DNA of 64,000 nt from Marsupella aquatica (lineage: Eukaryota > Plantae > Marchantiophyta): the NCBI GenBank assembly GCA_973895155.1, contig OZ316895.1, positions 7,490,184 through 7,554,183 of the forward strand, written 5' to 3'. The position numbers and the translations under genes are program-made. The notes beneath the pieces were generated by a model. It worked only from the letters and a program-made list of their open reading frames with translations, ran no database searches and was not told the DNA's origin. This document shows, in pieces, positions 29,991 to 60,424 of this stretch; the first letter of the stretch is position 1, and each line of letters begins with the position of its first letter.

Positions 29991-30159
29991 GACCCTTATT
30001 CTGCTCGTGCCACTCTTGAAGCAGCCTACCCAATGCCTTGCTCAACGACCTTACTCTGCTCGTGCCACTTTTGAGGCAGCCTGCCCAATGCCTTGCTCAA
30101 CGACCTTACTCTGCTCGTGCCACTTTTGAGGCAGCCTGCCCAATGCCTTGCTCAACGAC
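29991..30159. repeat. 55-bp minisatellite, three copies
   Basis: gaccttactctgctcgtgccacttttgaggcagcctgcccaatgccttgctcaac in tandem; the first copy is slightly diverged. Confidence 0.92.
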
Positions 30160-30744: not shown

Positions 30745-31336
30745 TAGAAGTAGATGTTCCTGGGTGATATGCGATCAGTACATCACAAGAATCCAATATT
30801 GTCCAATCAATATCCCAAATATAGACACAACAAACATATTTATATTTTAAAATTTAACATCACTCCATTTATTTTTCATAAAGTTTACTCTTGGTTAGTG
30901 TCAGTTGTTTGTTCTATCCCCTTACATGTTAGTTTAAGTTTTGTATTATGATTATATATGCACATGTGCATTGGTTTAGGTTTTGATATTCGGACAATTT
31001 TCCTGTTGTTTACTTGCAAGAATCTACCCGGTGTAGTTGTTGTAATGCATAATCGACAATCAACTTTGGACTCCTACCCTGAACAGCATGGAAGTTGAAG
31101 TGTCAGCAGATGACGCGGTTGCTATGTTGGGCTCACAACCTCAAACAGGCTCAATGGGGATGAAACCCAATGGAATTTGAGCATGACAACAAAGCGCTGA
31201 AATCATAAGAATTCATTAACATGTCCTCCATTATGAAAGAAAGTATCATTGGTTTTTAGCATAATCATCCTCTCGACCTATAGGCAAATGAGTTGGTCAT
31301 GACTGTGATTATACCAAAAAGTAATGATATTTCCTT
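30745..31336. repeat. Left arm and centre of a ~1.1-kb degenerate foldback palindrome
   Basis: agaagtagatgtt...atatgcgatcagtacatcacaagaatccaa, tatgcacatgtgcattggtttaggttttg and ggttgctatgttgggctc have reverse-complement counterparts at 59888-60424. The symmetry centre is near 31285. Confidence 0.8.
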
Positions 31337-31663
31337 TGTCACACCATTTAGAGTGGTAGTAAAGTATATCGTACTATCTAGGGTATAGAGGTTTTGTATG
31401 TGTGCTATATGAGCACTTTGTGTTTAGTTTGAGTTGTTGTGAGGGATAGTTATCCCCTTGTGTTGGCTCAAAGGCCTCATCTTTCAATGTTGAGCCTTTG
31501 AGCATGAGCTTGGTGGCTATGGTGTGGCTGACCAGGTTGTGTGCATGTAACGTGGATTCCTTGAAGCACAAGGTGCGTTGGCTTGACATATATGTGTGAT
31601 CATGTCGGATGGATCGATGTTGGATTAGCACTGATCGTTGTTCGATTTCATCCATTGAAGATT
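31337..31663 (+). repeat. Terminal repeat A1 of the retroelement
   Basis: Near-identical to 59410-59738 (tgtcacaccatttagagtgg...ttcatccattgaagatt). Confidence 0.93.
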
Positions 31664-32245
31664 ACATTGAAAGATCACTCCAAGTTGATTCGAAGTTGTT
31701 TCGAAGCTTGCTATATTGCAGAGTTGATCCATGGTAGCTTGGATTGTTGAGATCTTGCTGGTTGATTTGTTGTAGCTCAAGTCAGATCAGCCGTTGGTAG
31801 ATTGGAGATTGTGAGCTATTGATTGCTCTGAGAGTACAGCTTGGTGCTGTTTGAAGCTCTTTGATAGTTTGTTCATTGAAGTCCTCTCTGGAGTTGATTA
31901 CCGGATTGACATTTGGAGCTTCTCGAAGCTATGGCAATGAGGGACTGATCGAAGATCAGAAGGTGCCTCAAGTGGTAGTTGCTACATTGTGTTTTTGGAG
32001 TTCTAGTCCACACCGATTGCGTTGCAGCATCGCAAAGGCTATTGCGGATTTGAGATTCGTTGATGGATAGTACACTTTTACAAAGAAAGTGACAATCAAA
32101 TGTTGGTGAATTGCATTGTTGGCGTCATGATGGAGTCCGCATTGAAACGAGGTGCGGCGGCGACCTAGGGCACAAGGAACACGACAATATTGTTGAACAG
32201 TGGTTTGGTCCGAGAATTGCGGTGTGTTTTGTGACGCGCCTTGTT

Positions 32246-32828
32246 TTGGACTGGGATCATCCGAGTCCAATTGTGGGTTGTCTCTTGAGACTTCAGTTTG
32301 ACTCGAAGCTGGATTTGGATTGGGATCATCCGAGTCCAATTGTGGGTTGTCTCTTGAGACTTCAGTTTGACTCGAAGCTGGATTTGGATTGGGATCATCC
32401 TAGTCCAATTGTGGGTTGTCTCTTGAGACTGCATTTTGACTCGAAGTTGAATTTGGACTGGGATCATCCCAATCCAACTATACATTGGTAACTTCGGACC
32501 CCATTTGGATTTGAAGTTGAAGTTGGATTGGGATCATCCCAATCCAACTGTACATTGACAACGTTGGAGACTTGATTTTGGGCGAAGGTGAATTTGGATT
32601 GGGATCATCCCAATCCAACTGAATGTTGGCGTGTCCAGAGACCTCATCTGGACCTTGAAATGGATTTGGATTGGGATCATCCCAATCCAACTGTATGTTG
32701 GTGTGTCCAGAGACCTCATCTAGACCTTGAAGTGGATTTGGATTAGGATCACCCAATCCAACTGTATCTTGGCGACTTCACCTATGTAGAGGACGTGAAG
32801 GACTTGGACTGGGATCATCCCACTCCAA
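32246..32828. repeat. Array of nine 25-bp palindromes (TTGGATTGGGAT-C-ATCCCAATCCAA) spaced 66-72 bp apart
   Basis: Copies start at 32246, 32315, 32384, 32453, 32523, 32594, 32666, 32738 and 32804. The intervening 42-47 bp are more divergent but mutually related. Confidence 0.92.
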
Positions 32829-33573
32829 CTTGTGGACCGGGTGTCCGGATGACTATTGAATGGATTTGAATTGGAGGTTCACCCCGACGTAGCAAAATGT
32901 GGCGGGTGTGAAGGGCTCCCTCGGGCTCATCTCGGCGTTTCAAGGCGACTCATGAGGAGGGGCGTGAGGGCGGAATAGGAGCCAGACCGGAGCGGGCCGC
33001 AAGGTAGCTTGCTGGTACGTGAGGAGTAGTTGACAATTGGGTGGTTTGGAGTGCCTAAGTTGGTGCATAACTCCAAGGGGGAGGTCACCCATCCCAAAGC
33101 TATTCCTCCTGCGCGTGCTTAACCATGGGGTTTATATGGCATGTAGTGTACACACAAGCTTTCACAACTTGTTGTCTAAGTTAAAGGGCCAGGGGGCTTT
33201 ATACACTTATTAGTTTGTCTAGAGACCTGTTTTGGGCCAAATTAGAAGCTACTTAGAGGTTTTTGATACCTCTGAATCCATCTAGATGCATAGATTGGAG
33301 TAATTTTGCATGGATTCTTAGCTACAACCTTGGGGCATTGTGAAGCCTATCATGAAGGTGATGGTGATGATTTAGAGCAGATTTATCATCACGGATTCTT
33401 CGGGTGCTACGGGACTGTCCGAGGGACAGAGGACCGGTTTCACTCGAAGTGGGGTGCCGTTTCGGCCAACAACATTGATAGCAGTTGCAAGTGCAGCTTC
33501 AGATAGTGATTCTGACAAGGACTCTGTGACCAGTTCTCCTTGTCATCAGGTGATTGCACTTTTGTTGTGGGAT

Positions 33574-34971
33574 ATGGAAGAGATGTACGGGGCTACAAAG
33601 GGCCCACGACGATACTCTGGTGCAGTTGGCACGATTGATCTGGATGACTTCATCCAGGAGTTTGATACGTGGTGCGATATGCAGTCATTGCATAATGCCA
33701 TGTTGTTTACCCCTTTCATGGCATGGAAGGGATTATTTCAGCATTTGGAGGGGCCATCCATGGATGACTACCATGAGTTTCGGAAGGCTCATTTGGTTGA
33801 GATTGAGGCATGGAGGCAGCATTGGTCGCCTAATTATGTGTCCATCACCTATGGCACTAGAGCGGCTGCCCAACCCATTGCTACAGTTATTTCTTCTTCT
33901 AGCAGCACTAGCCAGAGTGGCACACCATCTACAAGTACCACTCCAACAATATCCACCACTACTCCTACCGGTGCGATTGTGACAGGGGTTGGAGTTACGC
34001 CAACGCTTAACCCTGTGGTGGAGTTCTTTGAAGTATTAAAGCAAAACTATCAGGGTGTGAGGACTGATAAGTTGAAGGGTCTCTAGGAGTTTCAGCGCAA
34101 GACTAGAGAGAGTCTACGTGAGACATACACTCGTATGCGCAGATTGATCACTGTCACCAAGGGAGTGACAATGACTCAGGCAGTCCAATTTTGGTATGCA
34201 ATTCTGGATAGAGAATTGCGATGTAGAGTGAGAGATGTCACTCTGCTTAGGGATGCAAATCCCACATTGGCAATTGTTTTTACACTTTCTGAGCGAATTG
34301 AGGTCAATATGGTGAATGAGAAGGTGGTGACTTCTGGATTTGCCAAGGAAGCACCAAAGGCTGCATCTACATCTACACCACAGCCTACTGCACAGAAGAG
34401 CCAAAGGGAGAAGCCTACTGCACGAGAGTCTACCAGTCAGAGACCTGTGCCTTCCTATGTTGGACAGCAGTCAGGATGTTAGACCTGTAGTGGGGATCAT
34501 GTGCAGCGGTATTGCCCTGATCATAGAGGGTCAGGAGGGGCCTCAACACCTGATCAACGGCAGTGTGATCATTGTGGAGCTCTTGGACACACCAAGGATA
34601 GGTGTTTTTCACTCCATCCTGAGTTACGGAGAGGAGGACAACGCACACATGATCAGGGAAGAGGAGGTAGAGGTGGTAGTCATGGCCGAGGTATGCCACA
34701 TGTAGCAAGGCAGGGAGGTGATACTGCTCCTACTGTGACCACCGATCCTAAGGATGCTAAGATTGCTCAATTGAAGCAACAACTAGCTGCTATGGCTAGT
34801 TCTCAAGTCAGATTTGCTTCTAGTGATGGGGCTTCCACATCTTATGGAGCTGATGGGGACCTTGCCACCATGGGATTCATGTGTGGCACTGCACATATTG
34901 ATGCATCAGCAGCTTTGACACGTGGAGCAGCCAAAGCTTTTGAGCCCCGAGGAGCAGTAGTGGAGCTAGAT
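33574..34971 (+). pseudogene. gag: Retrotransposon Gag with two zinc knuckles
   Basis: MEEMYGATKGPRRYSGAVGTIDLDDFIQEFDTWCD...; C*TCSGDHVQRYC and CDHCGALGHTKDRC knuckles; in-frame TAG stops at 34084 and 34480. The frame resumes at 35564 after the TIR insertion. Confidence 0.8.
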
Positions 34972-35557
34972 CCCCTAGGCCCTCACTCTTTGTATATTAT
35001 ACAATCATACCTGTGAGCCTCCCCTACACAGGTACCCCTTCTTATTAATTTTTCTCCTATAGAGATTATCCTTGTGTTTTATAAAAACCAAAAATTTCCT
35101 CTTATTAAAGTCTCTTGAGTGTATTACAAAAGGGAGTTTTGGGCAATAATAATTATCCTTCATATATTACAATTTCACTCCACACACCCGGTCCATCCCC
35201 CATCGCCCTTAATCCTCCCTTCAAAACTTTTCTGGCTTAGCATAGCTGCCAGTATTAACATTTTAATCTATGAAGGAGACATGGATACTATAAGGATAAT
35301 ACACGTGTACCAATTATAATTTGACACGTGTACCAACAATATGATGTCGCGTGTTGCTACCTATTGATTTACCCTTCCGCAAAAGTAAGAAGGATGCCAT
35401 TTCAAGGGATCTTGCAAAATTACAAAGTGGTTTTGGTATATATGCGAAGGTTGCGGAATTGTAACCGGATTATAAAAATTACCGCCGAAGGGATAAAAAT
35501 GACCCTTGAACGGTTCTCACATCCTCCCCATATTAGAAAGGAGTGGGGGCCCAGGGG
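34972..35557. mobile_element. 586-bp non-autonomous TIR element (MITE-like) with a 6-bp TSD
   Basis: TIRs cccctaggccctcactctttgtatat and atattagaaaggagtgggggcccagggg; TSD ctagat at 34966-34971 and 35558-35563. Excision restores the reading frame GAVVELD-SERGDARRQ. Confidence 0.88.
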
Positions 35558-36039
35558 CTAGATTCAGAGAGGGGGGATGCACGTCGACAGACAAAGCTTC
35601 CTCAGTCTTTTACATTGTTAGAGACAGTTCAAATTGCCTCTATGAACCCGGTTCAGACAAACCCTAGTGTGGGTAAGTTGGCAGGATCAGGTAGTGATGT
35701 AGTAGGGATGACAGGTACCTTGCTGGGGCAGCTACTACCATAGTGCGCACCCCATTATTTTTAGCGACAAACATGCTGAACTTGGGAGTTGGTCCTACAT
35801 AAGTGTTTAGATTGGCAGCTACACTCTGTGAGGACACTCCAATCGTTGCTTCCCACGCAGAAGCAACTTGCAGTGTTGAAGCAGTGACGACCATGCCACC
35901 TACTGCTACTAGTGAGACCTGGCATGCAGCAGCAGTGAGGTTGGTGGATTTACCAGCACGCCCTGCATTTGAGAGGACTAGGTTTAAACCTAGTGTTGTG
36001 TCATTGGATAATCGGAGTGGTATCTTCCGATTAGTTGGG

Positions 36040-36400
36040 CCTACTGGAGCCATATACCAGCCAAAGAGAGTGTTACTGGATATTGGTGCTCAGCCCTTGA
36101 TGTTGGGTAAGTCTGCAGTATGAGGATTGGCATTGCGTCCAGATGATCTGGAGGAGTGTCCCTTTCCTATTCAGACTTCATTGGGGGGACCTACACCCAC
36201 ACAACACATCACCAGACGACCACTTGAATTGAGGATTCAAGAGGGTCATGCCAAGGATAGCTCCCACATACAGGCGCAAGCTATTTTGACTAAGGCAAAG
36301 TCCTATGATGTGTTGGTGGGATGTACAGTATTGTACCCCATGGGATTTATTCTTGATTTTTGGGATGAATCAGTGTCATATCGACCTGATTGGCAGTCAG
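36040..36400 (+). pseudogene. Retroviral-type aspartic protease
   Basis: KRVLLDIGAQPLMLG (D-T/S-G-like active-site motif) followed by YDVLVGCTVL; in-frame TGA at 36121. Confidence 0.7.
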
Positions 36401-36804
36401 GAGATGCTCGATTGAGTAGGTTGCCAGTGCGATTTAGTGGACTTGTGAGAGGCCCTAAAACCACACTATTGTCTTTGGCAGCCTTCAGTGGTGCGATCAT
36501 TGATCCTGATGATTTGATGGAGGGTAATGCACATGCAGCAGATGTTCCATCAATGGAGGAGTCACATGAGGAGCAGATGGTGCAAAGGAGCAACCTGGAT
36601 TGGGATGATCCCAATCCAACTAGTGTTGTGCCACCAATATGGGGTACTGCACAAGCCTTGCCATAGAGGGCAGCACAATTGGTACATGATGCATGGCATC
36701 ATGCTTTTACACCACAATCAGGAGCAGAGCAGTCTCCTACAAGTGGGCCAATGACTCTTTCACCATTGGATACCACTCCTATTGCGTGGCAGTATCCACT
36801 AGAG

Positions 36805-37743
36805 GGTATTTGTTTGTTGGATCTATTTGGTGGGATTAGCACTGGATTGGCTACTATTCTTCAGGCAGGAATTCCTGTACATCGTTACTTGTATGTGGAG
36901 ATAGATGAGACCACACGAAGAGTCTCATTGCATCATGCCGCATTGTTAGTGGATCGTTATCCACACTTGTTGCCAGTGGATGCTGTTTGTGGCTATCAGC
37001 ATGCACTACCTGCTGATATTTCACTGTTGGGGGCGGATCATTTGGATCGCATTGGCCCTATTGATTTGGTGATTGCTGGTTGGCCATGTCAAGGTCAATC
37101 TAGAGCTGGAGTTGGACATGGACTTCATGATCCACGCTTTGCACTGTTTTGGGAGATGCTACGGGTATTGCGTCATCTCCAGTTACATCAAACACATTCC
37201 CCTGCCTACATTTTGGAGAATGTGCCACTATTGGGTGATGAGCGTCATCGACTTGTTGCTAGTGTTCATCAGGTCAGATCTTGGATTGGACCTGCTGTGT
37301 TATTGGATGCTGCACGTGTGAGTTCTCGTGCACATCGTCCACGCTTGTGGTGGACTAATTTGTTACCTTGTGAAGTGTTGAAGCGAGCATTTGATAGCAT
37401 TCCTCGCTCAACATCCTTGGTGATGGATAATATTTTGGATCCAGGGCATTGTGCACAACATGTGACCCAGTCTGACAGACCTCCATTGGCAGTGGTCAAT
37501 GTAGTTGGTCACCCGCGTTGTGAATTACCCACTTTTGTGAGCCATTCTGCTTCATATGCATTTAGAGCAGGTGGGCCTGGACTTGTGTGGGATACAGCTC
37601 TACAGTAGTTAGTGGAGCCTACCATTGATGAAAGAGAGCGTGCTATGGGATTTTTGACAGGCACTACTGCAGTTGCCTCAGTGTCAGAGAGTTCTCGCTG
37701 CCAAGTCCTTGGTCAAGCCATGGATTTGAATTGCTTGACTTGG
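36805..37743 (+). pseudogene. C5-cytosine DNA methyltransferase domain (DNMT3-like motif style) inside pol
   Basis: Motif I LLDLFGGISTG, II YVEID, III ADI, IV IAGWPCQGQS, VI ILENV, VIII AHRPRLWWTN, IX ERERAMGF..GTT, X RCQVLGQAMD, in canonical order. Same frame as PR and RT; one TAG at 37606. Confidence 0.9.
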
Positions 37744-37992
37744 ATTATCAACTTGAGAGTAGCTGAACAGTTGCGGATGCGCTCTGCTGGTGTTACTGAT
37801 CGTCCATTAGTGAGCTTGCGGTCCACTGAGATAGTGATGACCACAGCTAGGGGCGAGCAGACAGTCCATGGACCTATGGCAGGATTGGCCAAGGCTGGAC
37901 AGATAGTTGAGTAGGAAGGGACTGCTCAATCTACTGCTAAATAGCAATCATCGGCTATCTCTTCTACCCTACAAAAAGATATTAGGGATCTG

Positions 37993-38930
37993 GTGGAGAG
38001 TTGGGAGCCACAGATTGGTCCTAAGTTGATTGGGGAGGAGAGATGTCGCATGCATCGATTCTTGAAGAGTTACTGGAATTGTTTTGCATTCAGCATGAAG
38101 GATTTGGGGACATTGAAGGGCCCTGGTATTCAGATTGAATTGGCTAGTGATGTGCCAATCTTTCGTAGACCATATCGTTATAGTGACATGAAGAGAGCTT
38201 TGATTCAAAGCAGAATTCAGGATTTGTTGGAGGCTGGTTTGGTAGAGATATCATACGAAGAGTATGCATCTGTCACAGTGATGCCAGCCAAGAAGGATGT
38301 GCATGGTAATTACACGGATAGGCGCATGTGTGGTGATTATCGACCTATTAATCGTCAGACAAAATGTGATCGATATGCCATGCCCACACCTGAGGAGATC
38401 TTTGATGCAGTGGGGTATGCAAGGATTTTTAGTTCGTTGGACCTCAGGGCGGGGTACCATCAGTTGCCAATTAGGCATTCTGACAGGTCCAAGACAACAT
38501 TTTGGGGGATTGATTCTTATGGCAAAGATCGTTTGTATCAGTGGTTGTTCTTACCATTTGGGTTGAAGAATGCACCAGCTGAGTTCCAGAGAGTCATAAA
38601 TCGAATCCTTGCAGGTTTGGATTTTGTCAGATGTTATATTGATGATATTTTGGTCTATTCTTCTACTATGGAAGAACATCAGCAGCACTTGCAGATTGTG
38701 TTGGAGAGATTGAGAGCACATGGGTTGAAGCTCCATCTTGGCAAGTGTAAGTTCTTCCAAGAATAGATTGAGTATTTGGGCCACACTATATACCCAGGGG
38801 GATTGGGTGTACAACAGACTAAAGTGGAGGCCATTACACAGATTCCTCGTCCTACTGATGTGAGCACAGTTCATGCATTCTTGGGATTGGCGAGCTACTA
38901 TAGGAGGTATGTTAAAGGATTTAGCCAGCT
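37993..38930 (+). pseudogene. Reverse transcriptase, Ty3/Gypsy type
   Basis: RMCGDYRPINRQT, FSSLDLRAGYHQL, LPFGLKNAPAEFQR, YIDDILVYS, KCKFF. Confidence 0.96.
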
Positions 38931-38939
38931 TGCTAATTA

Positions 38940-39445
38940 AACCTTTGACCATACTCACTAAGTTGGATCAGGAATGGATTTGGGGTGATGATCAGGAGCA
39001 TGCCTTTCAGGAGTTGAAAGAAAGATTGGTATCATCCCCTATTTTGAGAAGACCCATTTCAGGGAGACCATTTCAGCTACACACTGATTGGAGTGGAGTA
39101 GGACTTGGAGCAGTGTTGACTCAGAAAGATGATGAAGGACATGAGTTTGTTGTGGCATATGCCAGTAGATCAAACAATTCAGCAGAGGCTAAGTATAGCT
39201 CTTATGAGGGAGAGTGTTTGGCAGCTGTGTGGGCCGTGGCACACTTCTGCTATTACTTGTTTGGTAATCCTTTCACTTTGATCACTGATCATTAGCCTCT
39301 CAAGTGGTTAATGGAGTCTGAAAAGCTTACTAGGAAGCCCCGTAGGAAGCTTGCAAGATGGGCATTGTTGTTGCAGGAATATGATTTCCAGGTTGTACAT
39401 AGACCTGGAAAAGTGAACTTGGATGCGGATGGATTGAGCCGCAAC
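38940..39445 (+). pseudogene. RNase H, Ty3/Gypsy type
   Basis: FQLHTDWSGVGLGAVLTQ...VVAYASR...YSSYEGECLAAVWAV...FTLITDH*PLKW...ARWALLLQEYDF...ADGLSR-like. Confidence 0.93.
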
Positions 39446-39759
39446 CCATGTACCTTTAGCAGGATGAGATTGGAGCCAGATGGCATGATGAGTCAGATAA
39501 GGAGATGGTGCCTTTGTTGGGTTCCAGCATGCAGTGGATCTATGGATTCTACATGATGAGTCTTCAGATGTGTATGTTGGTGAGGTAACTTTTGGACAAC
39601 AAGATATTCATAATGATGTGAGAGTGTTGGAATATCTGCGCAGTGGTTCTATTGTTGGTAGTGTTGATGCCAAGGAACGTGACAGGGTTCTACAGAGAGC
39701 CAAGAGGTTTCGATGGGAAGGAAACCATCTTTTGAGAGTACTACGTGATGGTAAGGTAT

Positions 39760-40232
39760 TGGTGGTACCAAAACCATCACAACGAGTACATTTGGTGCGA
39801 CATGCGCACGAGGAGTTAGGGCACTTTAGTGTCAAGCGCACTTATAGCTTGCTGCAAACACAGTACTGGTGGCGTGGTATGCACACTGATGTTCAGCAAT
39901 TGATAGCTAAGTGTGTGGTTTGTGATCGAGTGCGAGCATCATTTAATGCTCCCACTCCCCAATTGCATCCGTTGCCGATCATGGGTTTGGGGTACAGATG
40001 GAGTTTGGACTTTGCTGGGCCATTGCCTCTCACCCAATGACATAACCGTTATGTTTTGGTTATGGTAGAGCACTTCTCCAAGTGGATTGAACTAGTGGCA
40101 TTGCCAGATAAAGCTAGTGGAGGAGTGGCTACCACATTTTTGGATCGAGTACTCAGTCACTTTGGAGCACCAGTTGAGGTGTTGATTGATCAGGGCACGG
40201 AATTCCGTGGAGATTTTGAGGGTTTGTGTGAG
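39760..40232 (+). pseudogene. Integrase, 5' part (HHCC zinc finger and the first two catalytic Asp)
   Basis: HAHEELGHF...CVVCDR; WSLDFAGPLP; VLIDQGTEF. Truncated at GLCE by the CACTA insertion. Confidence 0.92.
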
Positions 40233-40959
40233 CACTAGTAGAAACCGGGGGGTATTTAGACCCCATTAAACGACTATTCAGTACCGTATAGGACTTGGAA
40301 ACGACTGGGAAGGACTCCAGTCCTTTATAGGACTATGAATCGTATGTTTTGTTACTATAATCAACTGAGTCCTTTATAGAATTGGTTTATAAGTCGTTTT
40401 ATAGACTGGATTTTCAGTCTATTGTAGTCTTTGTGTGGGTAGGTTTGGTGAGTCTTTTTCAGTCTTTTATGGGCTACGATGGTGAGTCGTTGGGAACGAC
40501 TCAAAAGGTTATGGAGGGTAGTCTTTAAGTATACTTTGTGGGTTTATAAAACGACTAAAGTAGACACTTTGTGGGGTATATACAAGTCTTTCATGTCAAC
40601 TGGAAATGAGTGATGAAGACCCCACTATACTACTTGGAATGAACTCACTCTTGTGCACAAATAACACATTCCATTCATGTTTTATTGTGTACTTGGAATG
40701 AACTCACTCTATAAGGTCACCATTCACCATGTTAACATTAGAACCTCACACAAATTTTCAGAAAGCCATCTTCTATACCATGTACACTAATATGAATTCA
40801 CAGATTCAAACATCATAGACTACAAAGAAGGTCACAAAGCATTTGTCTATACCATACACACTAATACTGAAATGATACAAAACATATTCAAGTATCATAG
40901 ACAATCACCATAGAGCCATAGTTTGACATCAATCACTTGTTTCATACATACAGAATTCA

Positions 40960-44241: not shown

Positions 44242-44379
44242 AGCTTCTGCACAGCACCCACAACCAAACAGAGAGAATTAGCACACTAAATTCAAAGTAT
44301 CAATCAATTTCATGCATATCCAACTATCCTAAACATCATTCCAAGCAGCAATTCCCGTTTTGTGACTCTGTGCAGGTAG

Positions 44380-48138: not shown

Positions 48139-49179
48139 GCACTCATTTTATTATGCAAGTGAAAAATACACTTCCTGTTAAGGATTTCACCCCCGACTAT
48201 ACTTGCCAAAATACGTAGCATAACGTTCCAAAAAAACAAAAAATATAGCTGCCTGAGTCATGTACCTATTCTCAAGTGAATGAGACAAAATTCCTAAATG
48301 TTTGAGGGTGTCAACTCCTCCGCTGTCCTCACATGTACTGCCTCTGCACGTACATCCATGACCATATCAGAGTCCAATCATGTATAGTCATAGACACAGG
48401 TGCCAGGTGCGAGACCGGTGTGAGATGTCCTCATCTTACTACCACATCAAATACAGATACCAATCCTGTTGTCGATGCCACTCAGCCCTGAGGTACTCAG
48501 GCATGTACATTAAGTCATCAAGGTCTAAACCCTGCTCATGCCATGGTGGTCTTCGATCCGTGCCTACAAGCAGTGGCAGCAATGCCCTCCATGGTGCACA
48601 TGTTGCTACCAAGTCCCTCCACTAGGTACTAATTAGTCTATATTTGCAGATATCTTGTGCGCCAGACACCACAAGAACCCTCGGCCAGACATGTGTAAGA
48701 ACTATATCATACTGCCAAATCAGGCAACAAGGAACCACCTACAGCATCGTGCTTGTCTAACTCATCTGCTGAAAAGTAAATGTCCTCTTCGGACTGTGCA
48801 TCCTCATTCACCATAGCATTCACAACACATCCAAGGTCTGCAGGCATTATCTCGGATGGAGCTACACTCTGTCTGGTTACCAATCCACACAAGTAAGCCC
48901 AAGCAGTAGCCATGCACGATGCAACCCGTAGGAGGATCCTACATAGGGCCTGTCGGTCTGGAAGAGGCAACATACCCACCAAAGTCTTCAGCTAAACAGA
49001 GCCCAGCAAGTAGATTCACAGTCACACCCCACGCAGCAGGAAACAACAATCACTTCAACTGCGACCAACCATGACAAGATGAGTTAGTTCAAGGATCACA
49101 TTTATTACAAAATTGTGATTTATACAAAAATATGAGGGACTCCTACTCCTCACTTTCTCCCACCATTGGTAAGCATACA

Positions 49180-49910
49180 TCTTCGCTGAAGCTTGGAGGG
49201 CCAGGCCTCAAAAATATCAAAGTCCCAAGCATTCTGTCATTTCCCTCTCGCTGCTGATTCCAGAAGCCAATCAGGGGAAAGCACCCAAAGATTGTTGTTC
49301 ATGACAAAATGACGCACTGTTGTCTTAAAGAATTTTTTGCATATTTTCATGTATGACAGACCTACAACATGAGTGGAGGTTTCTGTTAGACTCTCCTCCA
49401 CTGTCCCAACTAGCTCAACAACTATGGACTTGTACAGTCTGCACTTAGTCTCCCCAATTCCCTCTTCTGCAAATACCACACTAAACCCCTTCATAATGGT
49501 ATTTCTCTCCTTGCCATGCTCATTCAATATAGCATCTGCACGCATAGGATGGTGTCCTATGTTGACAACAGGTCCATATTGGACAGAAGCAAAGTTGGGT
49601 TTCTCTGTCGCTGCTTCATAGGCTTCCTTTTCAGCCAAAGCCTCTATAGTGGCCTCCTCACTCTCCCACAACTCATATTGCTCAGTACTCTGTACACACC
49701 TATGTTTAACAGAATCAATCAGCCAAGAGACTTCAACCACTTTTAGACCTTGGTTGGTAATGGCAGAATCAATGAAGGACCATGACCACTTGTTCATCAC
49801 ATCCAGCCATGTCCCCGCAACAACATGTGTAGTCTATGGAGTGATGTCCTTGACTTCAGTCCCATGGAACTCTGAGAATCGTTTTTGTACGATTGGCCTG
49901 TGGTATACCC
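49180..49910 (-). pseudogene. Tandem BRCT-domain cargo gene inside the CACTA
   Basis: DITP*TTHVVAG...LKVVEVSWLIDSVKHRCVQSTEQYEL and IMKGFSVVF...GTVEESLTETSTHVVG...VLSPDWLLESAARGK: two copies of the THVV...W(L/I)xDS BRCT signature. Confidence 0.75.
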
Positions 49911-52107
49911 GTTAGCGATAATCTTCTAAATAGGAGACATTTTTAATTTTTTTGGATGGAAGTTAGAAACTTTGAGGTTGTAAGCAGGATAATTAGCCAT
50001 AAAGAGCATTAAGTGAGTAGGGAAGAGGAACGGCCTTTACCAAGAAATGAGCGCTTCAACCTGGTGACCGGTAGCAGTAAGAGCGCGAGAAAGAATGAGT
50101 ACTGGCGGAGGAGCTATGCAGGTCGAGGAAGAAAACCGAAGGCTTAGGACAATTGTTGAAGCTGTAATGTGACACCACTGATTGAAGACTGGGCGCTGCG
50201 AGTAAAACAGGGATAATTTTTGGGCAGAAGTGTCAACTCACAAGAGGCGCCCTCTGTTAGTAGTTCTTAAGACAGCACTATTTACTTACTCAGAGCACCT
50301 TTAGTAAGTTTACTAAGTAGATGTTCACTATTGTTTTACCGACAGCGCTACTAGTTGATTTTCCACCATAGTAAGAAGTCTCTTTTCTAGTTAGCAGCAC
50401 TCAGTACTCTACTACTTTTCATACTAGTTAAAACTACAGTATGTAGTTTAGTTTAGATCAGCCTTTCTAGATCTCATTTTAGTTACTTTTCTTTCTAGAT
50501 TCTAGGGAACACTTTCTCTGCCCTGACTTTGATGATACTTAAGCCCTTGTTTTTCCTCATTTCGGGTGAGAAGGACTAAATTGGAAGCCTGGCTGTAGAT
50601 GCAAGACTCCCGGTCGCTCCCTTTGTTTGTGATCTATTCAGTTGTAGAGATTGCAAATGAAGTAAATGTTTGTGTTGAGGAATTTGTTTTGAAAGATTCC
50701 TCGATAAACAAGTGTATGTTCAACTTCTGGAAATCAAGATGAATTTTATGATTGATTGCTTACAGTGATGAGAATCATTCAAAATTCAAAGATGAATGTT
50801 TATAGGAAAGTGTCAAATCTATCATTGAGGGACAAGAGTACCATTATTATGCCCTGGACTTTTGCATTAGTATTTTGTCTATGCCATACCTGATGCCTAG
50901 CCAAACCGTGTTGCCATCATTTTAATGCAAAGCTCGGCAATTATAATCTGAAATTTACCTTGAAAACGGTAGAGATTATATCTTTCCTGTGATCTTCTCA
51001 TGACAAGAGCGAAATTTTGAAGGAGAAGAATATAGGAGAATGGGTTGAGTAAGACCCTAATCTTTGTTGAAGGAAGGGCAATGCCATTCATATTCCTTGA
51101 ATTCTTCCTTATGTAAATCCACCTTCAATCATGATTCCAGAATTAGTTGTTACTGGTTGATTTTATTCTGTGTTTGATCGGTTGAAGATAGAGAAATTTG
51201 AGAGGTCAGCTTATATCTCTTCATTAACACTATTTCCTTCAATAGCTTCCACTTTGTTCTTTACGGGATCGACTTTGGGTTATCTTTGGCTTTAAACCTT
51301 GTGTTTTATTTATAGACCTATACCACATGGCCAACTCACTTGGGTGAACCCATAGTGGCCAGGAATCAAAATGGCTTTGATTCCAGCCAACAGATGCGGG
51401 TGGTCAACCTTTGTACGTTTCCTACAGGCCATGTACACACACCCCACCTAATCACTGCAGACCGGAAGATAATGCGTTCACCTGATAATTGGAGGGCCTC
51501 TAAAATGCTGCGTTTATAACTTGGTCCAGTCCAGTCGTCTGGTGAGTCTCTGCTCCGATTCCAAACAGGAGAAATATTGGGACAAACGTACTAGACACCT
51601 TCAAGGATGCACCTCATAGGTTGAATATGAATGTGCCTTCACAATATTGAAGGTGACAAGTGCAATTGTTTTGTGATGCCACATACAGATGTTGTAAATG
51701 GGCAAACATTCAATGAGAATACAAAATGTTGGTACACAAAGGGAATTCTCGCAATTTAAATAGCCTTGTAACTTATATGCTCATAATCAGAAGTCCTGAT
51801 TTAATTTAAGCAGTGTCATGTAAGTCGTGATCAAAATGATTGTAGAGTTAAAAAAGTTCCTACAAGGCTTAAGGAGAGTTTTTGAAGGCATGTACCCAGG
51901 AACAAGTAATGAACTTAGGGTACTTGTTGCCTAAGCATCCTCTCCTACAGAGGTCCTTCTCAAAATTGGAATGTCTGCAATCTCCAAGGTATCCACATTA
52001 GGTGCACTATGCAAGTACATTATTCAGGTTCAAAGCCAAGAAATGTGATCTCTCATAGGAGTGTGCAAAGTAGGATCTATGGCATGGCGATGACAATAGA
52101 AGATCCA

Positions 52108-52710
52108 TCAATCAACACCATGTGCAGAGTGATGATAGATGTGTCTGTCACAAGCATAGCCTTTTGCTTGACGATCCTTCAAACAATGAAAGTGCCACAT
52201 GGTGGGACACCTAACACAGTGGACTATGTCCACCCAAAAATCTTCATCGTGCTGACCACATGCCTTGCACTTATGAAGTGGGCAAGTTGTGGCAAGATCG
52301 GGCAAACATGAAAAACAAAAGAACCTCACACAATATCTGTCAGGGCATTTCCTAACAAGTGGTGGAGCATCAACAGAGCCCTCATAAGACCCCAACTTCC
52401 CACACTGTGCACACTTAGCCTGCTTCTCCAAACAATCAGTGCACATCCAGCCTCCCTGGTGTGCTGACGGGAGGCCCACCCCTGGACAGTTGTTTTCTGC
52501 AGCAAGGTCAGACTCCGGGTTGAGGTGGAAATGCCTCATGCAAGGGCCCTCACATATGGCTAAGCCCCCACCATCGTCACAAATGGCACAACAATGAGCT
52601 GCCTTCTGGAAAATCTGACGTGCGGAGAAGTTACTACCATCAAGCCCAACTACACCTGTGTTGCTCACCTCTGTCCCCCGCTTCTTGGCTCGGATTTTAG
52701 GGCGTGCCAT
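52108..52710 (-). CDS. Multi-PHD zinc-finger protein resembling the EDM2/NSD-type PHD cluster (CACTA cargo)
   Basis: CAICDDGGGLAICEGPCMRHFH...C..VG...WMCTDC...CAQCGKLGS...C...C.RFF...C...CPLHKCKAC...CVRCPTMWHFHCL. Open 200-aa frame with a basic NLS-like N-terminus. Confidence 0.75.
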   Translation of the reverse strand: MARPKIRAKKRGTEVSNTGVVGLDGSNFSARQIFQKAAHCCAICDDGGGLAICEGPCMRHFHLNPESDLAAENNCPGVGLPSAHQGGWMCTDCLEKQAKCAQCGKLGSYEGSVDAPPLVRKCPDRYCVRFFCFSCLPDLATTCPLHKCKACGQHDEDFWVDIVHCVRCPTMWHFHCLKDRQAKGYACDRHIYHHSAHGVD

Positions 52711-53377
52711 GCCTACCCATGAGACAGATAGTACAATTTAGCAGAGTGCACAGACAATACAATTTAGTAGTGTACAAAAAGTACAATGTAGCATATAGAC
52801 TAGAGTGGCAATTGCTACTGCAATGAAATGATCACACACAGATGCAGAGTATACATACTTTTTGGTTTGTTGAGCCCACTCTGAAAACTGATCCCCTAGT
52901 ACAATAGCTCCACCTACACCTCAATTTTGTGGCTATGATTCACCAAAGGAGATCTGCAACAAGATTTAATGCATTTGAATCACATACAATAGTCGTGACA
53001 TGTAAAACAGGCATTTTTCGAACAGGATTGGTATCAAGCAGTGTAATCAGGGTTGTAATTTATACATCCTAAATAGGCTATGATAGTGAATGAGACAAAT
53101 AAGTTAGGCATAAATCACTTTTTCCAGGTTATCACATGGCCCATTAATTCCAGTCTTTGAAAGGAGACTTTTAAGTGAGCTTGCTAGCCTCTTAAATTAG
53201 GATATTGTACTTAGTGCAGCCATAATAGGATAAGTTATGTACTGTTGACCCTAAACCCTAGACCCAAAATTGCTCATAATTCAAAATTTTAAGTAAATAT
53301 CCTCTCTGTTCAAGTCAGAGTGTTAAGTTATAGGTTAATGGTCTTTGGTCTGTGCATGCGGTGAGACAAGTGGTCCT

Positions 53378-53827
53378 CTAGAGCGTGTGATCCAAACATG
53401 TGTAGACACCAAAGGCACCGGTGTTGGGGTCTGGGAGGGCAGGACAAGTGACATCGCCAAGCACACTACAGGATGGCGAGTGGTTCCAGATGATACATTG
53501 TGCTCTGTGCAAAAACCGACATCCAAGAGAACGGTCATCCAACTCTGGGCCAGAAGCCCTCCAAGTAGGACAGTCATATTGGCAACTGTGCACACACCCT
53601 TGGCACCTAATTTGTGGTGGGTCATGTACAAGAGACACAAATACCAAGGATGTCAGGAAGGGTACTGAAGCAGGTAGAGGCCGGCTGTAGTTGTTCCTGG
53701 CAAGAACAGGGTACTCAAAGTACCATGCAGATTGGGCTGGAAGAATCCCCAGTCTGACATACTCAAGGCGCAACATCTCTGCCTTGCGTGCAAGCCACAC
53801 ATGTTCAGCGTAGCGGGTCCTCACCAT
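53378..53827 (-). CDS. Hypothetical Cys/His-rich protein inside the CACTA
   Basis: 149-aa ORF with an ATG start, on the same strand as the other CACTA genes; CQGC..SC..C and C..H..C patterns. No family recognised. Confidence 0.35.
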   Translation of the reverse strand: MVRTRYAEHVWLARKAEMLRLEYVRLGILPAQSAWYFEYPVLARNNYSRPLPASVPFLTSLVFVSLVHDPPQIRCQGCVHSCQYDCPTWRASGPELDDRSLGCRFLHRAQCIIWNHSPSCSVLGDVTCPALPDPNTGAFGVYTCLDHTL

Positions 53828-55838
53828 AAATGTTGCTTTTGTTGTGATGTCCTCTGTTCACGTCCTTTGATGAGCAAGGCGAGCAGGAGGTCGACTTGCC
53901 TTGCCCACATCAACCAACCTGCACTTATCAGCTCCCACTCACTAAATTGGTTCCAACTAAAGGTCACAATATACACATAGCATGAAAGGTGCATAGTACA
54001 TATTTGATGCTAAGTTCCTGAGACAAAGAGCATGTATATAAAACCATGTTCTCCATGGACATGTACATAAATCATATTTGGATCCTGTTTTTTCATCCAG
54101 AAAGATCGAAAGTCTCACCTTGCAGGTTGCAGCAAAGAGAAAACTCACTGGTTGTCGTGTTGTGCAAGTGAACCTCCACTAAGGTGGCAGAAAGCAGACA
54201 AAGCTTCAAGAAGATGGGAAAGATGATCCTCGCCCATCATCCCCTATAAAATCTACACATAGGACGGACGCCCGGGGACATTTATCATGAAAATTGAAGA
54301 TCCATTCGACAACTCCATGACAGCCTATTCCGCATTGTGTCCGCCCCATGCAAGCGAGGGGTGTTCAGCCGAGCTTAGTCTAACCATGAATGATTGTTCT
54401 GGAAGCAGTTGCGACAATGTTTTGGTTTTTTTCTCCTATCCAACTCAATAGCTCACAAACATGGCATTGGACCCAATAACAAATTATACTTGCCATCATT
54501 CTCAACTGTATTACATGGCCCACACTGCTGACGTCCCTGACTCTTAAGGGAAACTCATCTCTTGGGCCAGCAACATCTCAGATTCTACAAAAATGAGAAA
54601 CTGTGAAGACTTCTTGAACTCCTATCCTGTGACTGTAGCATGTATGATTTGCTGGGACTGCAGGCAGTTCTGGATCCTGTTGCGGTTTATATACAGCAGC
54701 AACCTGAGCTCCATGAATTTTTTTTTAATAGACATGCGTTTGACCACGGCTACAACTCCAAAACAATCACCAAATCAAATCATAACAAAACCCACTCGAA
54801 AGCTGAACACTAGAACACTGGAACACACTCAAACAGGTTCTGCAAGGATGGCTCTCTGTCGGATCGGCTAGAGAATCAGGCAGGCTTCCTATTACGGTCT
54901 GCTCAAAGCCTTACACTCTGGATTAGACTCTGAATCCAAACGCGAGTCTACGCTTTCCGTTGCTGGTCACAGCGACGGGCAATCAGGATGATGCCATGCC
55001 GAGTAGAAGAACAAGAAAGCATTCCATAAAAGGCACTGAGATGAACCGTATAGTAAAAGTGGTAGTACTTCCGGTAGCGCGACCGACTCGCTATGTGACA
55101 GTCCGGAAAAAAGCTGAAAGGCTGAACTTAGGCGATAGATTCCGTGCTCAATGTGACAGGTTTTTTGAAATGATCAAGCCAAGGTGCAAAGGAAAACTGA
55201 TTGAAGGTGGCATGGGAAAGTTGTCAATGCAGGAGAAACTCTTCCCTTAGAGTAACCTTGTAACCAGGTAACAATGCAGGAGAAACTCTTGCCTTAGAGT
55301 GCTCGACGCTCCTTCAGCTGGATAGGGGCAGCTCCAAGTACACGGTCTGGTCCAATCACCGCCTGCTTTGTTACAAGAAGGTGGACTAAGCCACAGCTGA
55401 CGTCAATCATGCTATAAAATATGGACAGATGAGCCGTGCACAGTAAAAAATGGACAGATGAGCCATGTCACGGAAGCATATAGTCATTCCTCAATATTAA
55501 ACGAGACTATGAGAGGGCATATATAAGTTCACGACCAGGAAAGAGTCTCACCTTGCAGCACGGAGATTCTCAAAGCGCACCAAGATGAGTCCTTGTAGCA
55601 GGTGAATGTTGGGCGGTGTCATGTAAGGCGCAAATCAATAGCTCGCTACCTCCTGTCTCCCCGTCTGTCTCCCGTGCACTTCTGCCTCCCCGTCCGACTT
55701 CCCGTCTGTCTCCCACGTACTTAAATTGAAGTTTTAACAAAAACTATCAACACCAAGTGCAGCAAATGCCAACATATTCACATTGCAGAGCATAAAAGTA
55801 GTCACAGTTCATGAATCAGTTCCCTATTGAATCATGGG

Positions 55839-56340
55839 CACTACGCCGAGCACTGCGCAAGAGACTGGGATAGACACTGCAAACATGGGGACTTTTGTTT
55901 GGCAAGAAATCTGGACATCAAACCTTCAGCAGCGGCAACGGGAAGCATTACATCAGACGAGTGGACATCAAATGAGCAGTCCAATTATAGGCAAACGGCG
56001 ACTGACATAGCAGAGGGAAAAAATGTGCATTGACATAGCGGACATGCGCGCATTGACATAGCGGAGGGGAGCAAAACTACATAAGCCAAGTGACCTTTTT
56101 AAGGCCCACAATTTCAAGGGGAGGGACAAAGAGAGCAAGCACTCCAATCTCTTCAATCCCTTCCGCAAGTAGCCGCCGAAATCTACTTCTTGGGGTCCAG
56201 CCCACGGATGTAGATCATGCAAGGTGGTCAATCACAGTAAGTGTAATCACTACGCCGAGCACTGCGCAAGAGATTGGGACAGAGACTGCAAACATGGGGA
56301 CTCACAGGCAAGAAATCTGGACATCAAACCTTCAGCAGCG
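55839..56340. repeat. ~95-bp direct repeat inside the CACTA
   Basis: cactacgccgagcactgcgcaagaga...ggcaagaaatctggacatcaaaccttcagcagcg at 55839-55933 and 56248-56340. Confidence 0.85.
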
Positions 56341-57433
56341 ATCGATGGGCCTTAATTCACAGGTCCCCCGACTCGGTCCCTTGTTGCAGCTCGCCCAGCT
56401 CCACAACACCATAGACAAGGAGTTCGCAGGTCCAGTTTCCACCACGCAGCGTTAGCAAAACAAAAATGCTTGATCTTCGCCCTCCGCCCTCCGCCCTTTG
56501 CCCGAACCCCAAAAGATCACAAGCGCAGCTCCAACATCCAACCGGCAACCCTCCCCCGAGCTTTGTTAGACAAAAATCAGCACAGCACAACTGAGCTCGA
56601 CGGAAATAAGCTCAGCACCCACCGCAGCTGAACAAAGCTCACACAAGAGCTCATACGGGAGCTCGCTGTGGGAGTAAAAGAAAAATAGGAGGGCCGATGG
56701 CAGCCCGCAACTCCCACACCCTCCTCCTTCACAACTCTGGCGAGCTCCTTTGCAACTCCAATGCAAACTACTATCCACAATTGTAAATGCACATCGATCA
56801 GCCAAACCTAAACCCTCCCACTGAGCTCAGACTCCCGCGCAGCACTCCCGCAGTAGCACTCCTGCAACAACACATTGCACAGCACTCCCGCAGCACATTG
56901 CACATCCTCCCGCAACACTTTGCACAGCGCTCCCGCAGCTCCTGGAGACCTGATTGAAGCCTTGATTGCACACTCTTGAGGCAAAACAGCAGCGCAACCT
57001 TGCTAAACCCCTTGACCCTCTTGCCCTAAACGCTGAGTGGCAAACACTAACCGCAACATTCAACGTTGAGCCTCGATACTTTGTGAGAAAAGTAAAACAC
57101 GACTGAAAGGCGCGAGGGTGAAAAGGGTGCAAAGAGCCGTTTGGCGCCAACCTTACTATGACATGGCAGCCCCTAGAGTGATCTCAGCCATCCGGATGAA
57201 AAGAGATTGCCTTGAGTGATCTCGACCATCAATATGCAGGTTTCATGTTAACCCCAGGCCCCCATTCCCTCTACTTCAAGTGTCTAAATTAATTACACTC
57301 CAAGCCTTGTCTAGCCCCTAAAAAACTAGTGCTAAGTCATGACTACTCGGCCCTCTCAAAGTATAGCCCAGCTGAGTAAACTTCCAATATGCGACTTTTT
57401 GATGGTGGGGATCGATGGACTCCATCCAATGGT

Positions 57434-57925
57434 CCCTAAACCCCCCATCCCCTTAACCCTAAACCCCCCACCCTTGACATCTCAACCCTCCACCCTTGAC
57501 ATATAAACCCCCCCTAAACCCCCTTTAGTGAAAACTCAGCCACCCCCACACCTTGACATATAAACCCCCTAAATGTCTTGACAACTCGACTGTGGCCAGA
57601 CTGTTTTTGCAATGCCACGGGCCGTTTTAGAGCGCCGCTTGCAAGCTCAGGATCAATGAAGCATGTTGCCTCCAGCTCTCCAAATCCTCCCAAGGCAGCA
57701 AACAAGTTAGGGTCCACGGTCCCTGTTCGTTTACCCTAAATCGCTGCGTCACTATTTCAATTGAGTGTTCTCTGACCCTAAACCCCCTTTACTGACCCCC
57801 ACCCCCTTGAGACCTAACCGGCCCACCCTTGGCATATAAACCCCCCTAAACCCCTTTAGTGGTGAACCCCCACACCCTTCGCATGTAACCGGCCCACCCT
57901 TGAGCCCTAAACCCCCCCAAACCCA
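57434..57925. repeat. C-rich subterminal repeats containing plant telomere-like CCCTAAA units
   Basis: Multiple ccctaaacccc and ccttgacatataaacccccctaaa motifs in two clusters near the right end of the CACTA. Confidence 0.7.
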
Positions 57926-58282
57926 CTATGGAGTATATTCAAAATTAGGGAATTTCAACATTTACGCCGTTTGTCCGTGTTCAAGTTAGCGGGATGTTGG
58001 TAAAGAGGTCGTCAAATGAATTGTGCCCCCCCCCATATGCCCATTATCAAATTAAAGCCCACAACTAAACCCTACAACCCATCATGTGCTAGAGTGTTCA
58101 TACATTCACAAAGAAGGGTACTTTTCATAGTCTTATCCAAAACCAAAAAGCACTCACAGTCTTTTGTAGTGTTCATGTGAACCGTGGCAATGGTTTCGAG
58201 TCATTTAAGGTTGCCAAAAAGGACTTAGTGGCCTTAGTCCTATAAGGTTTGGTCTAAATTGCCCCGGTTTCTACTAGTGGAG

Positions 58283-59092
58283 CAAGCTCTGATTGACCAT
58301 CGTACTACTTCTCGCGATCATCCTGAGGCAGATGGATTGGCAGAGAGAGTTATACAAACTGTGAAGAGAGGATTGCGCAAGTATGGCTTGCAGGTTGGTC
58401 ATTTGGGAGACTGGGATCTCCAACTACCTTGGTTAGCTATGGGCTACCGTTTCAGTCGACAAGCATCACTTGCATCCTTCTCACCCTATTTCTTGCTCTA
58501 TGGTAGAGAGCCAGATTTGCCAGCGGCTATTCGTCATGATGTTGCAACTGTTGTGGATTTGGATGATCCAGATATTTGGGTAAAGGTTTGTTCAAAGAGG
58601 GCACGAGTTTTTGAGAGAGTCATGCCCATGGCCTTTGACAACCTTGCTATTGCCCAGCATCGTGATACTTTGCGGTATGCTACTATTCGTGGAGGAGGTT
58701 ATTGCACGAGGATTAGGAGATTTCATCCTGGCAATTATGTTTATTTGCAGCAGACAGCACCAACAATGCTTGATGTGACTGCAGGGCGGACAATCTTGTG
58801 TGTGCGTGAAGTGTTGCCTTCTGGAGTCCTTATGTTGGAAGGGCGTGATGGTATGGTTTGGAAGGATCACGTGCATAATTGTGCGTCATGTCACCTTCCA
58901 AACATTGATGGCACTATGGATCCAAGCTTTGCACATGTTCGTGCTAGCTTGAAGTGTATGTTGTGTGGGTCTGCTCGGGAAGCAGCTACTATGTTGATTT
59001 GTGATAGGTGTTCTAGAGGATGGCACATGTCATGTTTGACACCACCCTTGCAACATGATTCCTAGCAGATCATGGTTTTTTCCTCAATGTCG
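58283..59092 (+). pseudogene. Integrase, 3' part (catalytic Glu) with a C-terminal PHD finger
   Basis: HPEADGLAERVIQTVK...WDLQLPWLAMGYRFS...SPYFLLYGREP, then CMLCGSAREAATMLICDRCSRGWHMSCLTPPL...WFFPQC (C4HC3, frameshifted tail). Confidence 0.9.
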
Positions 59093-59262
59093 GTGATGCC
59101 GACTAGTTATCATTTGTGTTCTTGTGGAAGATATAGATTGCAGGTAGGTGATCGATGGGGCTCACTTGCACCCGGCCTCCTGATCTTCGCACCTAAAAAG
59201 GTGTATATTAACCTTGTAGAACTCATGGCTAGCTAGAGTTAGGGGACCTCACTCCCAGCTAG

Positions 59263-59407
59263 GGGGGCGATTGTGAGTTTTGGGCATGTGTGGACATTGG
59301 TTCCATTTGTACTCCATTCTCTTATGTTTGTGTTAGTGGATTGTGACTATGCTTGGATATGTGTGACAAGCAATGTATGTTGAGTAGCGATGTGTATGCG
59401 CACGACA
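59263..59407 (+). repeat. Repeat B1 of the retroelement
   Basis: gggggcgattgtg...tgtatgcgcacgaca, repeated at 59739-59887. Confidence 0.92.
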
Positions 59408-59409
59408 AC

Positions 59410-59738
59410 TGTCACACCATTTAGAGTGGTAGTAAAGTATATCGTACTATCTAGGGTATAGAGGTTTTGTATGTGTGCTATATGAGCACTTTGTGTTTAG
59501 TTTGAGTTGGTGTGAGGGATAGTTATCCCCTTGTGTTGGCTCAAAGGCCTCATCTTTCAATGTTGAGCCTTTGAGCATGAGCTTGGTGGCTATGGTGTGG
59601 CTGACCAGGTTGTGTGCATGTAACGTGGATTCCTTGAAGCACAAGGTGCGTTGGGCTTGACATATATGTGTGATCGCGTCGGATGGGATCGATGTTGGAT
59701 TAGCACTGATCGTTGTTCGATTTCATCCATTGAAGATT
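59410..59738 (+). repeat. Repeat A2 of the retroelement
   Basis: Near-identical to 31337-31663. Confidence 0.93.
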
Positions 59739-59887
59739 GGGGGCGATTGTGGGTTTTGGGCATGTGTGGACATCAATTGGTTCCATTTGTACTCCATTCT
59801 CTTATGTTTGTGTTAGTGGATTGTGACTATGCTTGGATATGTGTGACAAACGATGTATGTTGTGTAGCGATGTGTATGCGCACGACA
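59739..59887 (+). repeat. Terminal repeat B2 of the retroelement
   Basis: Copy of 59263-59407; ends ...cacgaca and is immediately followed by the TSD cctt. Confidence 0.92.
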
Positions 59888-60424
59888 CCTTTCATAGAGG
59901 ACAACATGCTGGTGAATTTCTACAAGGTGAATTCCTACAAGTCCCTCCAGTCATTGTAGTGCTTTGTCACCTTACTCAAAATTCATTGGGTCTTATCCCC
60001 ATCATGGGTCCATTTGAGGCTGCGAGCCCAACATAGCAACCATGTCATTTGCTTGAATGCGCATTAGCATCCACATCTATCCAAGGTAGAATCCAGAGTT
60101 GATTGTTGATTGTGCATCACAATAATTGTACCGGGTGCATGGATTCCTCCAAGCAAGCAATGAGAAAACTATATATTCGAATACCAAAACCTAAACCAAT
60201 ATACATGTGCATAGTTATAATCAAAAACTTAAACCAACACGTAGAAAAATAGCACAAACAACAGAACATAACCAATAGTCAAATGCGTGAACGGTAATTG
60301 AGCTGTCAAATTTTTAAATATGAATAGTTACATGTGTCATGTCAATGTTTTAGGCCAACTGACCAGATACTCTTGGATTCTTGTGATGCACTGATCGCAT
60401 ATGATCCAAAAACATCTACTTCTT
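59888..60424. repeat. Right arm of the foldback palindrome
   Basis: Reverse-complement match to 30745-31240, e.g. ttggattcttgtgatgcactgatcgcatat...aacatctacttct. Confidence 0.8.

Follow-up and report, generated by a model that had tools for sequence, protein, structure and literature searches.

Here we describe a retroelement of the Ty3/Gypsy lineage in the liverwort Marsupella aquatica that carries split direct repeats, in the order A1...B1-AC-A2-B2, in place of two full long terminal repeats (LTRs). The element lies at positions 31333-59891, both copies of its target-site duplication included, of a 64,000-nucleotide (nt) stretch of contig OZ316895.1 (assembly GCA_973895155.1, positions 7,490,184 to 7,554,183 of the forward strand); this whole stretch is referred to below as the window, and all window coordinates are counted along it. 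The layout itself is already known, and what we add is an explanation with comparative support, namely that the sites of priming and of integrase attachment have become uncoupled. Copies of the family to which the element belongs start and end at a palindrome, GACA-GC-TGTC, which falls within the predicted LTR (B-GC-A) and which the integrase likely cuts. More broadly, we lean on balance towards the view that a Gypsy lineage of algae and bryophytes carrying a Dnmt3-type methyltransferase shifted its attachment site to this templated palindrome within the LTR, so that every insertion would cleave CA-GC-TG and rejoin the primer-defined ends. To our knowledge, priming and integrase attachment in known LTR elements and retroviruses alike take place at the LTR ends; in the present element, the two kinds of site are separated by 140 and 330 nt.

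The 28.5-kb span comprises a 10.5-kb Gypsy-type element, with the domain order gag-protease (PR)-Dnmt3-like methyltransferase-reverse transcriptase (RT)-RNase H (RH)-integrase-PHD finger, and a nested 18-kb CACTA transposon (40233-58279) whose insertion splits the integrase and duplicated the target GAG. Because its frames are interrupted by stops and frameshifts, the window copy is, to judge from its sequence, a dead and decayed member of its family. Its features are the following.

31333-31336, plus strand: left target-site duplication, CCTT
31337-31663, plus strand: A1, which starts with TGTC; 3' part of an LTR bounded by the priming sites, predicted to hold the end of U3, R and U5
31479-31490, plus strand: predicted self-primer ATCTTTCAATGT and predicted RNA 5' end; exact complement of 31664-31675
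31664-31675, plus strand: predicted primer-binding site ACATTGAAAGAT of the self-priming type, directly behind the A1/A2 homology; relatives are arranged likewise
32240-32870, plus strand: 5' leader array of ~70-nt units with a palindromic core (families D2-D4)
33574-35016, plus strand: gag with zinc-knuckle-like motifs, broken by stops; like P0123 and P0141 by inspection, no Pfam hit
35803-36666, plus strand: protease-like region and linker, by motif only, LLDIGAQ (LLDSGAQ or LLDTGAQ in relatives)
36667-37914, plus strand: Dnmt3-like C5 cytosine methyltransferase with one in-frame stop (PF00145, E 1.6e-10)
37945-38766, plus strand: reverse transcriptase, Ty3/Gypsy type (PF00078)
38864-39295, plus strand: RNase H (PF17919, PF17917)
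39501-40232, plus strand: N-terminal part of the integrase, with H2C2 zinc finger and the first two catalytic D residues (PF17921, PF00665)
40233-58279, minus strand: nested 18-kb CACTA transposon, foreign to the retroelement, with CACTAGTAGAAACCGGGG inverted ends and GAG duplication (PF02992, PF13960)
58283-59065, plus strand: C-terminal part of the integrase (catalytic E) and PHD finger
59257-59269, plus strand: polypurine tract AGCTAGGGGGGCG; in family I relatives an identical tract precedes B1
59270-59407, plus strand: B1 proper (predicted U3 start), ending in GACA
59408-59409, plus strand: 2-nt spacer AC (GC in the family) of the junction GACA-nn-TGTC, the predicted integrase site
59410-59738, plus strand: A2
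59739-59745, plus strand: 7 nt of polypurine tract kept at the A2/B2 joint (shorter or none in relatives)
59746-59887, plus strand: B2 proper, ending in GACA
59888-59891, plus strand: right target-site duplication, CCTT

Both pairs of repeats are well preserved. A1 (31337-31663) and A2 (59410-59738) share 324 of 327 aligned bases, and their alignment contains two gaps of 1 nt each; for B1 (59263-59407) and B2 (59739-59887), in the limits originally drawn for them, the figure is 141 of 145, with a single gap of 4 nt. The B so drawn opens with 7 nt (GGGGGCG) that form the 3' part of the polypurine tract. The element ends in TGTC and GACA and is flanked by the 4-bp duplication CCTT. No copy of B stands 3' of A1, blastn detecting only two copies in the window, and no TGG-type primer-binding site follows A1. 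Excision of the element in silico restored a 1.14-kb inverted repeat (68.5% identity, E 1.5e-124). An earlier reading of these letters without database searches, hereafter the sequence-only reading, had given the same coordinates, repeat order, termini and target-site duplication, the same solitary A1 lacking a TGG-type site, and the same palindrome at the empty site, and all of this was recovered on re-measurement. The insertion target is the centre of that degenerate palindrome (30738-31332 plus 59892-60431), which is perhaps an old foldback element. Contigs from public sequencing runs span both flank junctions with 0 differences and thus argue against misassembly, yet they are not independent evidence, since the runs may come from the window's own source.

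The layout is shared by a wider family. Among the best 80 of 553 matches of a metagenome scan, the B-nn-A-B ending was found at 29 loci, which form 20 flank groups (~20 insertions) in three families. The other 51 loci consist of two in which B-nn-A is cut short, 29 (26 groups) in which B is followed directly by flank, one with an internal deletion and 19 without a match to B, 13 of which have a contig end within 224 nt; two of the 29 loci with B followed by flank were misclassed, L039 being a junction at a contig end and L026 a truncated B. Paired LTRs were seen at none of the 80. The A and B sequences of the three relative families are unrelated, their RTs are 42-77% identical to that of the window, and in all three the methyltransferase lies upstream of the RT. 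Target-site duplications of 4 bp flank L020, L030/L054 and L047/L048, and a given insertion keeps the same form across separate assemblies (L009/L014/L021; L030/L054). In four public runs from two studies, whose contigs are too short to phase A with B, repeat contigs reach a depth of thousands to hundreds of thousands versus ~10-190 for the flank; at the last base of B (59887), each run has 24-43 contigs that exit into unlike flanks.

The B-nn-A junction is constant in length. All 23 loci examined have a spacer of 2 nt (GC in 10, AC in 8, AT in 3, AA and TC in 1 each), and within the window's own family 80-87% of the depth of contigs crossing 59408 has G there instead of A (four runs, two studies). 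A transition turns GC into AC or AT, which makes the palindrome GACA-GC-TGTC the likely active site. The templated end-to-start joint with a 2-bp spacer that the sequence-only reading had postulated is thereby upheld and is conserved; its choice of AC as the spacer is not, GC being the commonest form in the family. One stretch, L025:8500-9317, reads tract-B-GT-A-primer site-leader and represents either an assembly wrap-around or a head-to-tail tandem.

The putative priming sites lie elsewhere. The 12 nt directly behind A1 are the exact complement of 31479-31490, within A1, and this is the sole 12-nt match among 8536 start positions in the element; a minus strand primed by 31479-31490 would start at 31663, the last base of the A1/A2 homology. 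Of 12 independent 5' ends of relatives, seven have a comparable self-primer match with at most one mismatch and eleven with at most two, and in eight of the 12 the predicted primer starts 29-32 nt past a TATA or TATG. Five differing primer sequences, the fifth of them (16 nt) from L025, where the contig possibly wraps around through A, are still complementary to their sites, a case of compensatory change. At the other side of the predicted LTR, a G-rich tract stands ahead of B1 in every family, and B2 normally begins where the tract ends. Priming by a tRNA was considered and is unsupported, with TGG missing after A1 and a 12-nt self-complement present, although no tRNA library was searched. 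Priming likely needs no tRNA, as had been proposed from the letters alone; the proposal fell short in that a primer-binding site and a polypurine tract are present after all.

Because these priming sites define the LTR as B-GC-A, reverse transcription would yield an ordinary linear complementary DNA (cDNA) with B-GC-A at each end, and we infer the following course for the RNA, the cDNA, its cleavage and the joining of its ends. Transcription would begin in A1, ~30 nt past a TATA box, and finish in A2. The first ~12 nt of the RNA, to go by their complementarity, would anneal behind A1, so that minus-strand synthesis would begin at the last base of A, and the tract before B1 would prime the plus strand, giving [B-GC-A]-internal-[B-GC-A]. 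The integrase would then cut the left junction with a 2-nt stagger to produce two CA-3'OH ends with 5'-GC overhangs, which is the kind of substrate that retroviral integrases insert, and these ends would be inserted with the 4-bp duplication that is observed. Joining of the original cDNA ends, the end of A and the start of B, before or after insertion, would create the A2/B2 joint, such that the integrated copy would be a circular permutation of the cDNA opened at its left GACA-GC-TGTC.

The A/B joint has the irregularity that such an origin predicts. It is exact in 7 of 10 insertions of family I and 4 of 7 of family III; among the inexact ones, L032 and L075 retain one additional tract base, L017 has a 17-nt filler and +2, L062 and L065 lack 2 nt and L069 is unclear, while the window copy keeps seven tract bases and the joints of family II are too decayed to class. 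Given this variation among copies, the joint likely behaves as two joined primer-defined ends. Trees of the copies are poorly resolved, and the joint variants need not be separate events. Cutting of both junctions would yield copies of the form A-internal-B, and these are seen about as often, five full and five A-internal-B copies having both ends in view; the duplication is exact in four of the latter five. The A-internal-B copies are scattered among full copies and, by what are weak tests of terminal branch length, are not older (family I, 0.056 versus 0.048, p 0.44, 19 and 11 loci; family III, p 0.43, 5 and 7 loci), and double cutting or late recombination between B1 and B2 would each be able to yield them.

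Several observations weigh against the permuted-LTR scheme. The loci compared come from metagenome assemblies and are the best 80 of 553 matches. L069 has the layout with no target-site duplication, the duplication of L008 matches at 3 of 4 positions, and in L025 and L060 the junction is seen with B2 out of view. No good self-primer was found in L076/L077 (3 mismatches), the best match in L007 lies elsewhere in A, and the TATA candidate of the window is weak (TAGTTAT), its transcription start being predicted. The variants of the A/B joint could be decay after insertion. Lastly, the mirror isomer A-B-GC-A-internal-B is missing, as B precedes A in 0 of 12 independent 5' ends; a symmetric circle with two LTRs has two equal junctions, and a bias for the left one must therefore be assumed. 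As a speculation, this bias could reflect timing, if the left LTR turns double-stranded well ahead of the right one, the integrase binds the left one first, and the ends are joined later.

The sequence-only reading had favored a different route, akin to that of PAT/Ngaro elements or of the insertion sequence IS3. Spelled out, the RNA would contain B1-A2-B2 with each joint templated, annealing of the repeats would form a circle, and the DDE integrase would open it at B-GC-A. The layout does equal that of Ngaro, PAT-like and VIPER elements as far as these are described in PMC6681497, the junction is a conserved palindrome, and full templating could account for the missing mirror isomer. We nevertheless regard this route as unlikely. 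In four families A ends exactly at the self-priming site and B starts exactly past the polypurine tract, self-primed minus-strand DNA would jump to A2 and skip B2, and the A/B joint shows variable tract remnants, filler and losses while the length of the B-nn-A spacer is constant. As a self-priming site and a polypurine tract are both present, a permuted LTR copied by ordinary LTR-type reverse transcription accounts better for the ends, and the missing mirror isomer speaks against integration from the junction of a symmetric covalent circle. As to the IS3 parallel, the IS3 junction is made anew each cycle, and the integrase of foamy virus provides a closer biochemical precedent.

A third possibility keeps the permuted LTR and lets the RT make the joint, the plus strand jumping from the right end to the left and recopying B before the integrase trims the overhangs. 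Most joints are exact, as this would predict, the -2 variants use 2-nt microhomology, and neither a ligated circle nor host end joining would be necessary; the 17-nt filler in L017 is more like the work of host end joining, and we consider this possibility somewhat more doubtful still. A one-off event of tandem insertion, deletion or misassembly in an otherwise ordinary LTR element would suit the age, the disruption and the atypical joint of the window copy. We reject this explanation as highly improbable, as the family data refute it: in three other families, ~20 independent insertions have the same layout, several with target-site duplications of their own and none with the paired LTRs that the sequence-only reading had named as evidence for such an origin, the form of one insertion recurs in separate assemblies, and each run holds 24-43 unlike flanks past B.

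The protein domains place the element within the Gypsy lineage. A Pfam scan of 12 reading frames of the two retroelement halves (E up to 0.1) returned no match to a tyrosine recombinase, in keeping with the earlier recognition of a DDE integrase and no such recombinase. The RT is nearest to Ty3 (Ty3 Gag-Pol E 8.9e-34, versus 1.5e-9 for the next retroviral RT), the order PR-RT-RH-integrase is that of Ty3/Gypsy, the integrase combines H2C2 (PF17921) and DDE (PF00665) domains, and the TG..CA termini and target-site duplication fall within the 4-6 bp Ty3/Gypsy range. The distance from the catalytic D to E is 34 residues in 29 of 29 proteins matching the pattern, one fewer than the usual 35. A PHD finger follows the integrase in place of the chromodomain of the Tf1/sushi group. 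Because two identical full LTRs at its ends are missing, in the window and at all 80 loci, the retroelement is a Gypsy-lineage variant and not a canonical LTR element. The methyltransferase has DNMT3A/B/C as its best solved relatives (DNMT3A, E 1.3e-11) and shares one frame with gag and the RT, that is, the Pol frame.

Named relatives of these proteins occur in Marchantia, Calypogeia and Sphagnum and, more distantly, in Haematococcus; none with a Klebsormidium name was among 28 matches, nor among 120 listed of 343 in a second search, and a scan of viral contigs found no relative. In Marchantia polymorpha, methyltransferase-bearing polyprotein relatives are annotated (the likeness is at the protein level). 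One Marchantia protein, P0123 (Mp_4g09160, annotated as a hypothetical gene), has an open gag-protease-methyltransferase frame of 1278 aa and is a candidate young copy. The methyltransferase lies between protease and RT in elements of the bryophyte type, unlike in the alga-like polyproteins P0143, P0144, P0145, P0147 and P0148, in which it precedes the integrase and, in those with an RNase H, follows that domain. A commentary held transposon methylases to be absent from 'land plants, such as tracheophytes', and the bryophyte matches found here narrow that statement.

The closest precedent is KnitGypsy-Dnmt3 of Klebsormidium nitens, for which the legend to Fig. 4 (panel c) of de Mendoza 2018 (PMC5890265) describes DIRS-type repeats on Gypsy domains; the combination is thus not undescribed, as the sequence-only reading had supposed. 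By that description the two share Gypsy domains, a Dnmt3-related methyltransferase in Pol and the repeat order A-coding-B-A-B that the Fig. 1 legend of the paper defines, while the text of PMC5890265, in the parts consulted, gives no priming sites, junction, target-site duplication or mechanism and places the acquisition in the K. nitens lineage, whereas here, comparing by description, annotated proteins of Marchantia, Calypogeia and Sphagnum are close relatives. In a literature search that left out subscription papers, Repbase reports and the REM1 paper, this layout on a Gypsy element was met only in PMC5890265, with no mechanism. Self-priming has been described for Tf1 and Tj1, and for the Tcn1 elements of plants it has been predicted (PMC6317226, PMC4600332); Tf1/sushi and Tcn1 elements likewise have a primer-binding site complementary to the predicted RNA 5' end, a polypurine tract and a DDE integrase; by those accounts they integrate with two full LTRs and mostly bear a chromodomain, whereas in the present element the repeats are permuted and both a PHD finger and a methyltransferase are encoded.

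For the cleavage itself, the relevant passages of PMC1180852 report that foamy virus integrase in vitro cuts the LTR-LTR palindrome CA-AT-TG after CA on both strands and leaves a 5' AT overhang, the geometry predicted for the Marsupella element, and such cleavage of a palindromic junction after CA is common to prototype foamy virus and HIV-1 (PMC1180852, PMC4372172, in the sections consulted). The viral junction, as presented there, arises when the cDNA ends are joined and serves as a side route at most; in the Marsupella element the junction is templated within the LTR and would be the sole attachment site. PAT-like, Ngaro and VIPER elements share the order A1-ORFs (open reading frames)-B1-A2-B2 in the consulted part of PMC6681497, from which the present element differs in lacking a tyrosine recombinase and in its Ty3-type RT, DDE integrase, TG..CA ends and 4-bp duplication. 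REM1 of Chlamydomonas reinhardtii is reported to be a Gypsy element with a PHD finger and with a truncated integrase that lies in reverse frame. The LTR structure of REM1, an element credited to Perez-Alegre 2005, is reportedly unusual.

If the scheme is correct, it would represent an obligatory form of the long-debated junction-cleavage route in retroviral integration. An internal palindrome that is cut in every cycle would offer a natural system for asking whether LTR-LTR junctions are true integration precursors, and would mean that permutation can generate split direct repeats with no tyrosine recombinase involved. Programs that search for paired LTRs would miss such elements, which in Marsupella aquatica reach a contig depth hundreds of times that of the flank.

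Further observations concern the remainder of the element and of the window. The palindromic core of the leader array (32240-32870) recurs in frame at 36591-36621, in the linker between protease and methyltransferase, and the peptide encoded there is missing from the closest relative, P0121. An AT-rich stretch at ~35000-35560 breaks the gag-pol frame relative to P0123 and is probably a small insertion. The CACTA element (40233-58279) contains transposase pieces and ORFs with BRCT and NSD-type PHD matches. Elsewhere in the window are a ~1-kb element with long inverted arms that are 96-99% identical (17917-18913), an exact 259-nt tandem duplication (21703-22220), a 55-nt three-copy array (29994-30159) and an alternative oxidase exon that is 76-80% identical to those of many land plants (27431-28066).

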